Of a stretch of DNA of 64,000 bases, positions 44,302-48,213 are shown in pieces. The translations under genes were made by a program, and so were the position numbers. The notes beneath the pieces were generated by a model, which saw nothing but the letters and a program-made list of their open reading frames with translations, ran no database searches and was not told the DNA's origin. This DNA comes from Kiritimatiellia bacterium. GTDB taxonomy: Bacteria > Verrucomicrobiota > Kiritimatiellia > RFP12 > JBMNHG01. The stretch is from contig JBMNHG010000011.1 of assembly GCA_050950285.1 (NCBI GenBank), positions 124,001 through 188,000 of the forward strand, written 5' to 3'. How positions within the stretch are numbered: position 1 is the stretch's first letter; each line of letters starts with the position of its first letter.

Positions 44302-44345
44302 AAAAAAAAACGGCGCGCCGCTTTTTTCGCGGCACGCCGTTTTCC
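44302..44345. repeat. Palindromic element copy 3 between convergent genes (possible bidirectional terminator)
   Basis: A9-CGGCGCGCCG-C-T6-CGCGGCA; shares the downstream TTTCGCGGCA with copy 1. Confidence 0.7.
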
Positions 44346-44884: not shown

Positions 44885-45037
44885 GTCGGGATGTCTCCGA
44901 AAAACACAGAAAACCCCAGTTTATCGCAGATCCCTCCCCGCAGGGAAGCCGATTTTCCCGCCGCCGTTTCTTTTGGGCGCATCTCCGTTTTGCTCCCCAC
45001 CTCGTCCATCGGGAAGACTGGGGCAGGTTTTGAGGGG

Positions 45038-45334
45038 CTAGCGTTGTCGCGACTTTGCCAGTGCCAGCGAGGCCAGAACCAGTTCTTCGCAAAGGCGCTT
45101 GAACGTCTGGTAGTTTTCGAGTTCTGCCTTCACACGTTCCAGATCGGCTTCGCGTACATAGTCCGAGCGGCTTCGCTTCTGGATCGTGTAGCTGATCTGG
45201 TAGAACGGCCCGGCCTTCTCCTTGGGCTTTTGGTATTGCACGCTGAGCCGTCCGGGGCGCATGGGCCCGAGAGCCACGATCTGCTCTTTGATGGCACGAA
45301 TCTTCTCTTCATCGCCTGAGGTGTCTTTTTCCAT
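45038..45334 (-). CDS. Small IS accessory protein, DUF6788-like
   Basis: 98 aa with RBS AAAGGAG; MRPGRLSVQY...GPFYQISYT..KRSRSDYVR...NYQTFKRL pattern as recalled for DUF6788. Confidence 0.7.
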   Translation of the reverse strand: MEKDTSGDEEKIRAIKEQIVALGPMRPGRLSVQYQKPKEKAGPFYQISYTIQKRSRSDYVREADLERVKAELENYQTFKRLCEELVLASLALAKSRQR

Positions 45335-45342
45335 CTGGTTTC

Positions 45343-45398
45343 TCCTTTCGCGCTTGATACTATAGCATTCGAATGCTATAGTATCAAGCGCGAAAGGA
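45343..45398. promoter_or_regulatory. Perfect 56-bp palindrome forming a symmetric bidirectional sigma70-type promoter plus SD-like sequence
   Basis: TCCTTTCGCGCTTGATACTATAGCATTC|GAATGCTATAGTATCAAGCGCGAAAGGA; TTGATA-17 bp-TATAGT and AAAGGA occur on both strands. Confidence 0.8.
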
Positions 45399-45408
45399 AG
45401 GAAAGACA

Positions 45409-46665
45409 ATGGAAACCTGCAAAAACCTGATCGAAGCCGAAAAGGCAATCCAGCGCAAACACATGGAACTGGCCCGCAGGGAGTACGAAGACTACCTGCA
45501 GAGGCTCGCGGAGAGCACCCCCTCCGAGGGAAGCGACGGGAAGCCGCTCGTCAAGACCAGGACGATCGGCATGAGGGTCGCGACCGGGTTCGGGCCGGTT
45601 GAACTGAAAGTGAAGAACGGGCTCTGCCGGTCGTCCGGTCGGTACGAGACGCCGATGCGCCTGCGCTTTTTCGGCGGCAGGCGCGGCTGCGTCTCCCCCG
45701 CGTTCGAGATGAGGATCGCGGCGACGGCCATGGAGACGGGATCGTTCGAGAAAGCCTCGAAGCTCTGCAGGGAATGGGGGTGCCCCGTCAGCGACGACAA
45801 GGTCATGGACGTCGTCAGGGACATCGCCGGGCGCTGCGAGGAAGGGAAGCTTCCCCGGCTCTGCGAGGAGGCGGCGGGGAGCGAGGACACGCTGGTGATC
45901 ATGATGGACGGCTGGTTCGCCCGGCACCGCGGGGCGGGATGGGGGAAGCGCAACCCAAGAGCCGCCGAGCGCGTGGAATGGCGCGAGATGAAGTCGGCGA
46001 CAATCTTCAAGCTCGCCCACGCCGCGGAGACAAGCGGGGGAAGGCGCGTGCTTGTCACCAAGCACGCAGTCTGCATGCCGGCCGGCACGGATCCGGTCGA
46101 CTTCGGCCGGAAGGTCGAATTCGAGGCGCGGCGGATGGGGATGATGCAGGCGAAGTTCGTCTACATCGTCATGGACGGCGGCACCTACCTCTGGAACATC
46201 TTCGAGGACAGGTTCGCCACCATCGCCGAAGGGACGCTGGACTACTACCACGCCACCGAGCATCTCGGCGCGCTCGCCGCGGCGCTCTTCCCGGACGACG
46301 AGCCCGCGCGAAAGGCATGGCTTTCGGAGCGTTGCAGGAAGCTCAAGCGGTACGGGGGGAAGACGCTACTCGATATCCTCAAGGCGCACGAAGGCGATGG
46401 ATGCTGGGACGCGAAGGCCGTGCAACGCGAGACGGAATATTTCATGAAGCACAAGGACCACATGGACTACCTCAGGCAGCGCAGGCTGGGGCGCCCCATC
46501 GGAAGCGGCGCGGTCGAATCGCTTTGTTCGCAGTTGCAGAACCGCTTCAAGCGGTGCGGCCAGTTCTGGTCCGCAGTCGGGCTCGAGTCATTCCTGAAGG
46601 CGTACATATGGTACGTCAACGGGGAGCTCCACCACTGCTGCGCCCAGGCAGCAGTCCCAGCGTAG
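45409..46665 (+). CDS. DDE transposase, Mutator-like/IS256 superfamily (ISLre2/ISKra4-type)
   Basis: IMMDG, VMDGGTYLW, LDYYHATEHL (D-x-x-H), IGSGAVES. Confidence 0.9.
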   Translation: METCKNLIEAEKAIQRKHMELARREYEDYLQRLAESTPSEGSDGKPLVKTRTIGMRVATGFGPVELKVKNGLCRSSGRYETPMRLRFFGGRRGCVSPAFEMRIAATAMETGSFEKASKLCREWGCPVSDDKVMDVVRDIAGRCEEGKLPRLCEEAAGSEDTLVIMMDGWFARHRGAGWGKRNPRAAERVEWREMKSATIFKLAHAAETSGGRRVLVTKHAVCMPAGTDPVDFGRKVEFEARRMGMMQAKFVYIVMDGGTYLWNIFEDRFATIAEGTLDYYHATEHLGALAAALFPDDEPARKAWLSERCRKLKRYGGKTLLDILKAHEGDGCWDAKAVQRETEYFMKHKDHMDYLRQRRLGRPIGSGAVESLCSQLQNRFKRCGQFWSAVGLESFLKAYIWYVNGELHHCCAQAAVPA

Positions 46666-46833
46666 CCGGTAGCAAAACGGAGATGCGCCCGTTTCTTTTT
46701 CTTTTTCTACGACTTTCTGCTGTATGCCAAAATTAAAACACGCCACAATGCATAGCATTGTTTACGAACCCGGCCACAAATAGCGCTGCGCACGGAGATT
46801 CAGGCATGGGGAGCTGGAATTTGGAGCTGGGGA

Positions 46834-46884
46834 AGGGGCACGGACATTCCTGTCCGTGTCACGGGTTGGAAAACCCGTGCCCCT
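46834..46884. repeat. REP-like doublet (two hairpins in inverted orientation)
   Basis: AGGGG-CACGGACA-TTCC-TGTCCGTG-T-CACGGGTT-GGAA-AACCCGTG-CCCCT. Confidence 0.6.
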
Positions 46885-46959
46885 GTTTTGCGGTATGAAT
46901 TGCGGCCGAGTTAGTAACGCACTTTCCTTTTTTGATATCGGCCCGCCGTGGCTCGGGGG

Positions 46960-47934
46960 TCAGTCGCCGTAGCGTTCGTGGCTGATTGCGCGGAATTCCT
47001 CGCACATGGCCTGGATGGCTTCCCGGGTGTGGCCGGCGCCCTTGGGGTCGGTGTACCAGCGCGGGAGGAAGCCGCCCTTGGGCGTGGCGAAAGCGTCGGC
47101 CATCCTGCGGCAGTAGGCGCGGATTTCGCCGGGGTTTCCGCGCGCCATCGTGTGCTGGATGTCCACCGGGCTGTAGAAGGCGAGGCGTCCGCGGAAGCGT
47201 TCCCCGAGGGTTTCGAGGCCCATGTTCTCCTGCTGGTCCATGTGGATGACGTCCAGGCCGATCTCGATGAGGTCGTCGAGGATGTCCACGATGTAGCCGC
47301 ACGAATGGAGGAAGGTCCGCAGGCCGAGTTCGCGGCAGCGCCCGAAGACGCGGGCGTAGCGGGGCTTCCACAAGGTGCGCCAGGTTTCGGGAGCGATCAT
47401 GAGGCGGTCCTGCAGGCCCCAGTCGTCGCAGAAGATGAACCCGTCCACGCCGGCGGAGGCGTACTGCTCCATCGCGTGGAGGTTCATGTCCGCCAGGAGG
47501 TCGATGAGCCGGCAGAGTTTTTCGGGCTCCTCGTAGATGTCGCACCAGGTGTTCTCGAGACCGCGGATGAAGTGGATCCGCTCGTACATGGAGACGCCGT
47601 AGCCCAGCAGGAAGCGGTCTCCCGCGTTCTTCCGCGCCTCCTTCAGTCCGGCGTAGCGCGCGGGGTCGCGGAAGTCCGGGATGCGGAGCTTCGGGAGATC
47701 GTCCCACGTGGGCAGGGCGTATCGCTTCACTTCGCCGAGCTGGCAGACGCCGATGTTGTCCCATACGGAGCCCCACTCGTCCACGCCAATGCCGCCGGGC
47801 GGCCGGTCGTCGGGCGAAGGCCGCATCCCGCATCCGGCGAAGTCGCATCCATAGGGGTCGGGGAAGTCCCGGGCGAAGCGGTCGGGACCGGTGAAGGCGA
47901 TTGTGTTCTGCACGACCTCGCGGGGTGTCTGCAT
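46960..47934 (-). CDS. Uroporphyrinogen decarboxylase (URO-D)/MtaA-like family protein
   Basis: VDEWGSVW, RGLEN, DDWGLQ, FLHSCG, DLIEIGLDVI, VDIQHTM. Confidence 0.82.
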   Translation of the reverse strand: MQTPREVVQNTIAFTGPDRFARDFPDPYGCDFAGCGMRPSPDDRPPGGIGVDEWGSVWDNIGVCQLGEVKRYALPTWDDLPKLRIPDFRDPARYAGLKEARKNAGDRFLLGYGVSMYERIHFIRGLENTWCDIYEEPEKLCRLIDLLADMNLHAMEQYASAGVDGFIFCDDWGLQDRLMIAPETWRTLWKPRYARVFGRCRELGLRTFLHSCGYIVDILDDLIEIGLDVIHMDQQENMGLETLGERFRGRLAFYSPVDIQHTMARGNPGEIRAYCRRMADAFATPKGGFLPRWYTDPKGAGHTREAIQAMCEEFRAISHERYGD

Positions 47935-48135: not shown

Positions 48136-48213
48136 AGCCGATTTTCCCGCTGCCGCAGCCGTGGCTCGGGGGTCAGTCGCCGTAGCGTTCGTGGCTCATG
48201 TTCTCCTGCTGGT
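48136..48213. repeat. Mosaic direct repeat of 44947-44966, 46945-46983 and 47221-47237
   Basis: Collinear matches of 19/20, 39/39 and 17/17 bp read directly from the sequence. Confidence 0.8.

Follow-up and report, generated by a model that had tools for sequence, protein, structure and literature searches.

A conserved symmetric core inside a perfect 56-bp palindrome is a candidate operator for the DUF6788 protein of an ISKra4-like insertion sequence

Between the two divergent genes of the insertion sequence described here lies a perfect 56-bp palindrome, and the question that it raises is whether such symmetry serves the control of the element and, if so, which part of it does. The usual restraints on insertion sequences are thought to be weak promoters, frameshifts, antisense RNA or truncated transposases. 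In the 64,000-nucleotide stretch of DNA analyzed (the window), the host element occupies 1,716 bp (44975-46690) and carries a gene for a 98-aa DUF6788 protein (45038-45334, minus strand) and, divergent from it, a gene for a 418-aa ISKra4-like (p-MULT) DDE transposase (45409-46665, plus strand). A sequence-only reading of the locus had suggested that the palindrome between them (45343-45398) might be a selected switch that lets polymerase fire in one direction at a time, a symmetric operator for the small accessory protein, or a supercoiling-sensitive cruciform.

An inverted-repeat search of the window confirmed the structure itself: the two 28-nt arms (45343-45370 and 45371-45398) are 100% complementary with zero spacer. 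No perfect inverted repeat (loop 0-5 nt) elsewhere in the 4.05-Mb genome is as long, the runner-up having arms of 22 bp. Folded as single-stranded DNA, 45330-45412 gives z = -13.5 against 200 shuffles. That the palindrome was made by assembly or fold-back, the outcome that the sequence-only reading had named as its refutation, is extremely unlikely and has itself been largely refuted: unique sequence flanks the palindrome on either side, the perfect form stands in two genome copies with different flanks (the present one on contig C11 and another on C8), the closest relative, L062, has the same layout, with the site present in imperfect form in relatives, and the contigs of short-read run X1, possibly a source of the genome, tile the palindrome with zero differing letters. 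A central 43-bp piece in X1 has twice the depth of the neighboring pieces, as expected of a perfect palindrome. An artefact would draw what plausibility it has from the mis-polishing of repeated elements, which could shuffle A and G alleles among the four copies, and from evidence that consists of contigs rather than raw reads, in DNA runs that may be the genome's own sources. In contigs of RNA run X20, coverage is confined to parts of 46168-46690, the 3' part of the transposase.

The element has well-defined ends. Its left terminal inverted repeat (44975-44997, plus strand, 23 bp) is 96% complementary to the right one (46668-46690, minus strand); all four genome copies, on C11, C8, C2 and C6, begin at the same base, and the end of the L062 element is nearly identical to this terminal repeat. 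Identical 9-mers at 44966-44974 and 46691-46699 form the target-site duplication, and each of the four copies has its own distinct 9-bp duplication. The transposase matches family NF033572 best of the three families that it matched (155 bits, E 2.8e-45, residues 9-405, below the cut-off of 205) and PF06782 above its cut-off. By motif, D167, D256 and E370 are candidates for the DDE triad and D278-x-x-H281 for the C/D-x-x-H motif. Both the repeats and the duplications fall within the ranges given for the ISKra4 (p-MULT 4) group, 18-39 bp and 8-9 bp respectively (Guerillot et al., 2014; PMC3942029). Some members of that group insert 13-17 bp upstream of a -35 box (PMC3942029), and the left flank of the C2 copy has, by eye, a TTGACG 17 nt from the element end, the spacing of such promoter-targeting members, in this one copy of four. 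The contigs of four runs list no junction of the sort that a circular transposition intermediate would leave.

Several other features of the genome came to light beside the element. A second multi-copy element (C1:42736, C2:369600, C2:373560, C3:790736 and C4:86449) contains a 636-aa frame weakly similar to the transposase, and its two C2 copies are inverted relative to each other about 3.5 kb apart. A distant DUF6788-like open reading frame on C8 (about 73600-73900, E 5e-5) lies outside the element and has no core upstream of the kind described below. Within the window, a 42-bp direct repeat (98%; 46945-46986 and 48158-48199) flanks a URO-D-like gene (46960-47934), suggesting a tandem duplication; GC-rich REP-like hairpins occur at 44304-44343, 46834-46884 and many genome sites, some of them perfect with 18-22 bp per arm; and just beyond the right end of the element lies an AT-rich 17-bp inverted repeat (46745-46761), one half of which resembles a half-site of the core.

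The palindrome carries two predicted promoters. A consensus scan found TTGATA-17-TATAGT, with TG ahead of the -10, on both strands, two sites against 0.4 expected in shuffles, and each predicted promoter matches 10 of 12 consensus positions in addition to its extended -10. For the transposase, the predicted -35 lies at 45354-45359, with the same hexamer in L062, and the extended -10 (TG-n-TATAGT) at 45377-45382, both on the plus strand; for the DUF6788 gene, the -35 lies at 45382-45387, where the closest relatives have TTGACA, and the extended -10 at 45359-45364, both on the minus strand. The two -10 boxes are 12 bp apart and each promoter has its own -35. The mutual overlap described by the sequence-only reading stands, with base 45359 common to the plus-strand -35 (45354-45359) and the minus-strand -10 (45364-45359). 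Transcription would be predicted to start at about 45352 on the minus strand and about 45389 on the plus strand, some 37 bp apart; an RNA-hairpin role for the palindrome was set aside because starts at these places would leave the core untranscribed.

The claim that each arm ends in a ribosome-binding AAAGGA shortly before an ATG was borne out for one gene and only partly for the other. Before the DUF6788 gene, a Shine-Dalgarno-like AAAGGA (45343-45348, minus strand) stands 8 nt from the ATG, a position where relatives also have a purine run, and may well serve as its ribosome-binding site. On the transposase side the AAAGGA is 10 nt from the ATG and belongs to a doubled purine run (45393-45402, plus strand) whose second member, an AGGA outside the palindrome, is closer. 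Comparison with L062 suggests that the AAAGGA of this run is probably the copied end of an arm and the AGGA the older ribosome-binding site.

If the symmetry matters, its essential part should recur at related loci, and we gathered 170 of these, 159 of which had a DUF6788-like gene. Fourteen were dropped (10 without an N-terminus, two with a short upstream region and two without a start), leaving 145 usable and 98 after retaining those at <85% identity; the metagenome loci among them are the best 80 of 566, selected for their similarity to the query, and one partner family (IS701-like) accounts for 53 of the 98. A later set comprised 68 loci, of which four were dropped and 47 were distinct from the earlier ones, L189 being the same place as the earlier-dropped L037. 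The 13 further divergent DUF6788-transposase pairs that were viewed first, all from the same taxonomic order, mostly have a symmetric center of 16-24 bp that differs in sequence from pair to pair, and TTGACA is mostly present for the small gene only.

What recurs is a 16-bp core, TAGCA-N6-TGCTA (45363-45378), the predicted operator, which here overlaps both predicted -10 boxes and spacers. At a criterion of at least 8 of 10 matches it is found upstream of 71 of the 98 DUF6788 genes: with 47 of 53 IS701-like partners, 12 of 21 divergent ISKra4-like partners, all four ISNCY-like partners, 8 of 15 others and none of the five ISKra4-like elements with a co-oriented transposase. It is also kept at loci at which no transposase partner or divergent gene was identified. 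This spread over partner families implies that the core tracks the small gene rather than the transposase. The remaining 27 lack a TAGCA-type core, and some of these have other palindromes; other DUF6788 subfamilies, represented in the 47 later loci, carry different palindromes in the equivalent position, in many cases immediately ahead of the ATG. In this genome the exact core occurs four times, all within the copies of this element, once in each and never in the terminal repeats. An unbiased test for arms symmetric at 7 of 8 positions around a 6-nt gap found 64 of the 98 upstream regions, against 4.7 in shuffled sequence and 9 of 94 in control DNA taken from farther upstream, and the enrichment is strong for even gaps and hardly present or absent for odd gaps. 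The distance of the core to the start ranges from 11 to about 100 nt, and its distance to TTGACA is 2-5 nt; the core therefore follows no fixed promoter geometry.

A few further observations concern these loci. At L198, L205-L210, L223, L226 and L235, and at the ISNCY-like L099, L108, L131 and L139, the ATG follows the palindrome by a few bases, apparently leaving the gene leaderless. In L013 (G045:C29, about 1916-1938) and L011 (G101:C266, about 1507-1535), the intergenic region and the 5' ends of both genes are deleted and the remnants abut, the deletions being centered on the palindrome region. No relatives were found in viral contigs, one was found in plasmids, and a scan of a genome collection gave one locus.

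We next consider how far the symmetry extends. Among the 71 core-bearing elements, pairs 9-11 counted from the center are paired at frequencies of 0.87, 0.77 and 0.58, against 0.46, 0.36 and 0.31 expected from arm permutation, and center pairs 1-2 at 0.65 and 0.77 against 0.45 and 0.48, in both cases with kinship uncontrolled; beyond about 14 bp from the center, pairing is near background except at the mirrored ribosome-binding sites. In 35 disjoint nearest pairs of elements, two-sided changes at pairs 9-11 retained pairing in 10 of 16 cases, against 2/13, 3/17, 4/18 and 0/6 (9/54 in total) in slid controls, 4/15 at the center and 17/100 at pairs 15-28. At all positions, changes on one side are more frequent than those on both. 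The prediction that homologs would keep the palindrome by compensatory change thus held for the flanking pairs 9-11 and failed for the 56-bp perfection and the outer arms. Among the 98 elements this one pairs at 28 of 28 positions, the runner-up reaches 22 of 28, and the second longest perfect run has a length of 14; perfect runs of at least 40 bp occur in 2 of the 145 distinct elements viewed (98 + 47). The symmetry that matters for function would span about 22-28 bp, and the rarity of the perfect forms suggests that long perfect palindromes arise occasionally atop a conserved symmetric site of that length.

The protein that would read this site belongs to a family of unknown function. DUF6788 (PF20586, 47.8 bits, cut-off 27.2) is its sole Pfam match, with no recombinase domain, and its Atlas neighbors are DUF6788 clusters. 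No known DNA-binding family matched it by sequence in the Pfam, PDB-sequence profile or PHROGs searches: among PDB sequences the profile search had a single match, at E 0.024, to a protein that is unrelated, and PHROGs gave three single-member matches near E 0.005. The AlphaFold2 model (pLDDT 87, pTM 0.71) has a helix at residues 5-21, strands at 29-33, 44-51 and 54-60, and a long helix at 62-97; the strand region modeled alone reaches a pTM of 0.17. Foldseek found no match at E 0.001 among PDB and viral models, and the best VIA-align result (Z 8.0, rmsd 1.5-2.5, 57-66 residues aligned) is tied with many helical hairpins (Z 7-8). Predicted as a homodimer, the protein scores 0.77, the best control scoring 0.00, with antiparallel contact through the long helices; 20 of 30 solved pairs reach the dimer mark, as does 1 of 23 single chains, and runs share at least 95% of contacts at pLDDT of at least 86. 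Two-fold symmetry, together with basic three-stranded heads at the two ends, would suit such a dimer to half-sites one helical turn apart.

Variation among the proteins offers a lead as to how the site might be recognized. Residue 34, just after strand 1, is aromatic in every one of the 71 proteins whose half-sites read TGC, and 7 of the 8 proteins whose half-sites read TGA have a non-aromatic residue there; loop residues 40, 43 and 24 likewise track the half-site. In 15 later short-loop proteins, picked by eye after the link had been predicted for new loci, both non-aromatic proteins had TGA half-sites and none of the 13 aromatic proteins did; 11 of these 13 had GC in both arms and two had one damaged arm. 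The link corresponds to only two changes on a tree of 48, which is not significant (sign test p 0.5) and compatible with a single origin (p-AU 0.125), with L162 and the zinc-knuckle protein L221 as exceptions. Residue 34 is accordingly offered as a candidate recognition residue, at the level of a lead.

We consider it probable that the core is the operator of a dimeric DUF6788 autorepressor that acts over two back-to-back promoters, and that the palindrome around it became perfect when one of its arms was written over the other. Behind this proposal stand four observations, namely the sequence, the polymorphism in it, the way core and gene go together, and the two-sided flank changes; the fold and the dimer are predictions, and binding and repression are what these together suggest. 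A DUF6788 homodimer would contact two TAGCA half-sites 11 bp apart through its two three-stranded heads, spaced by the antiparallel pair of long helices; the half-sites overlie the spacers and extended -10 boxes of the two sigma70-type promoters, and the bound dimer would silence both its own gene and the transposase gene, providing negative feedback on both. The position of the site suggests repression rather than activation. In a cell without DUF6788 protein, both promoters would fire, giving a burst of transposase followed by repression, as with TnpR at the res site of Tn3. The operator is the one of the three earlier suggestions that has gained support, since the core goes with the DUF6788 gene in no fewer than three transposase families, and also at loci with no identified transposase partner.

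Two other accounts retain the promoters while assigning the protein a different role or none. DUF6788 might bind without repressing, by bending or twisting the spacer to favor one direction in the manner of MerR or by recruiting the transposase or a host factor; the site lies within the -35/-10 spacer, as MerR sites do (PMC12825309), and many IS701-like partners have, 17-18 nt away from TTGACA, a poor -10 that might need an activator. We regard this as unlikely: on either strand of this element the spacer has the optimal length of 17 nt instead of being of the overlong MerR type, and the site is about 77 nt upstream in one subgroup and directly before the ATG in others, so that a single activation geometry is hard to envisage. 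Improbable, too, is the account in which promoter symmetry alone explains the locus, with mirrored sigma70 promoters competing for polymerase in one direction at a time and DUF6788 not bound. The strength of both promoters as matches to consensus speaks for it, as do the TG and TA of the core, which double as extended -10 bases, the presence of both -10 boxes in 9 of the 12 divergent ISKra4-like elements having the core (the minus-strand, small-gene TAnnnT alone is in 10 of the 12), and the competition that appears at strong bidirectional promoters (PMC12825309). Yet a -10 (TAnnnT) on both strands is found in only 26 of the 71 core-bearing elements, whereas core pair 6, a C/G that would be unconstrained in a promoter, is kept in 70 of the 71; the core shifts relative to the -35 and the start and persists without an identified divergent gene; the element of genome G479 described below has a -10-like hexamer at the center instead; and basal activity was too low for competition at five of five promoters tested (PMC12825309). 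The selected one-direction switch of the sequence-only reading fares no better, the perfect symmetry being broken in two of the four genome copies and mismatched in L062. Polymerases would presumably still exclude each other sterically at this locus, for which perfect symmetry would be unnecessary.

The DNA structure itself could alternatively be the working unit, as a supercoiling-sensitive cruciform or a single-strand hairpin controlling transcription or transposition. The predicted hairpin is very stable by its folding z, center pairs 1-2 are symmetric above arm permutation, and in an unrelated IS4-like element with a DUF6788 gene, six of six copies have a perfect palindrome of 48 bp. Against this, long perfect runs are confined to the two elements already counted, the innermost pair is broken in 25 of the 71, two-sided changes at the center keep pairing at a rate near background while one-sided changes dominate, and the sequence of the core is itself fixed, beyond what mere pairing would need. 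We therefore hold a working cruciform to be very improbable, weak support being left to that part of the earlier reading.

Returning to the proposed autorepressor, the perfection of its palindrome appears to be a recent, lineage-specific by-product and a mutational end state. L062 (its small protein 81% identical) has both promoters in the same 34-bp geometry, three mismatches in 19-bp arms, and outer arms different from those of this element; its -35 boxes are TTGATA on the small-gene (left) side and TTGACA on the transposase (right) side, where this element has TTGATA twice. The outer arm here matches the small-gene side of L062 and L008-L010, and between the end of the arm and the transposase ATG stands the second AGGA. 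With the operator, the two -35 boxes and the two ribosome-binding sites at mirrored distances, the arms would already have been alike, and on the simplest account a replication template switch then copied the small-gene-side arm over the transposase-side arm, a direction suggested mostly by the one relative L062. Template switching, in which the nascent strand templates itself, perfects quasi-palindromes and is described as a mutational hotspot (PMC7202029), and it would fit both the 56-bp and the 48-bp case; the portions of that source drawn on here claim no regulatory use.

The 48-bp palindrome (24+24) belongs to loci L239-L244 of genome G479, where an IS4-like transposase gene is divergent from a zinc-knuckle DUF6788 gene. 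Loss of SbcCD as a requirement for the survival of such palindromes was considered, SbcD giving no match in the present genome (rated 99.35% complete) or in G001 and G022, and SbcC giving N-terminal-like matches, none full-length, in this genome; the in-vitro size limit for SbcCD cleavage is put at 20-36 bp (PMC4245961). Such loss is not required, because G479, with SbcD above cut-off, retains its perfect palindrome in all six copies.

The perfection is also polymorphic. Base 45359, which closes the transposase -35 and on the other strand provides the final T of the DUF6788 -10, is A on C11 and C8 and G on C2 and C6, so that A45359G breaks the palindrome in two of the four genome copies; run X1 has A, and runs X13 and X19 have G at full depth, placing the mismatch in two of three DNA runs, as judged from contigs of runs that are possibly the genome's sources. 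A is probably the ancestral state, because L062 has it. The four copies differ at nine sites: 45359, one other single change, and seven changes within the 101 bp of 46317-46417 that split C11 and C2 from C6 and C8, six of them silent and one Ala337Pro, in copies otherwise nearly identical. This block, from its clustered differences, is a patch acquired from a diverged relative, and both of its states occur in runs X13 and X20. All four combinations of the base and the seven-SNP block are found among the four copies, and since each allele occurs with both block states, recombination, recurrent change or mis-polishing must have intervened.

A bolder extension would make DUF6788 the founder of a new class of dimeric DNA-binding repressors that insertion-sequence families exchange, and 45359 a built-in reversible switch, a pairing of claims that we think unlikely. 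A nested 12-bp quasi-palindrome (45357-45368) is symmetric at 10 of 12 positions with A and at 12 of 12 with G, and the two nested inverted repeats would vie for the base, G perfecting the 12-bp one and A the 56-bp one. With G, the -10 of the repressor gene loses its final T, so a template switch one way or the other would turn an individual copy from repressed to derepressed or back, amounting to phase variation of transposition. The four combinations of base and block fit recurrent flipping, and recombination or mis-polishing would give them too; each allele is also present at full depth, in separate runs.

Should the autorepressor model hold, a stand-alone repressor with its operator would constitute a portable, general control unit on ISKra4-, IS701-, ISNCY-, IS66- and IS4-like elements, and DUF6788, a family of unknown function and no clear solved fold, would gain a function and a target sequence, as well as a recognition residue open to testing. 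The 56-bp perfection by itself matters less, as it looks like a mutational end state, and the element offers a natural experiment in the form of two alleles, one base apart, in the -10 of the regulator. This locus contributes a measure of how far the symmetry is conserved, an account of how the long perfect form arose, a candidate residue for recognition, a model of the dimer and a natural allele that differs by one base. Our literature search found nothing on DUF6788, PF20586 or a module of small ORF, divergent arrangement, palindrome and IS701, with subscription journals, ISfinder and TnCentral outside its scope.

Control by a small protein encoded in the element is familiar from other mobile DNA. 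OrfA of the IS3 family restrains its transposase, and InsA of IS1 binds the terminal repeat, whereas the predicted site of DUF6788 is internal and absent from the terminal repeats. InsA, too, is small, is encoded by its element and keeps the transposase in check (PMC8944449), but it is the N-terminal part of a frameshift-fused transposase, while DUF6788 is encoded by a separate gene on the opposite strand. Four elements of the ISKra4 group are said to bear additional genes of unknown function (PMC3942029); the transposase here scores below the family cut-off, the main text of that study does not contain the string "palindrom", and the portions drawn on here describe no divergent regulator. Bacterial bidirectional promoters share with this locus a pseudo-symmetric DNA that two polymerases cannot occupy together (Warman et al., 2026; PMC12825309); they differ in having one shared -10 and starts 10-23 bp apart, in place of the two -10 boxes and more widely spaced predicted starts seen here.

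A close parallel is Tn3, in which binding of the resolvase autoregulates tnpR and tnpA and permits a burst on entering a new host (PMC7157771). The tnpA-res-tnpR region, like the present locus, has divergent mobile-element genes with promoters inside one protein-binding site, here a predicted one. TnpR, however, is a recombinase acting at three res subsites, whereas the 98-aa DUF6788 protein lacks a recombinase domain and would use one 16-bp site; and unlike in Tn3, no recombination role is seen for DUF6788, and the module has been swapped between unrelated transposase families. In its proposed working, the DUF6788 system resembles the control exerted by TnpR of Tn3 and InsA of IS1 yet belongs to neither, having no recombinase and no fusion frame.
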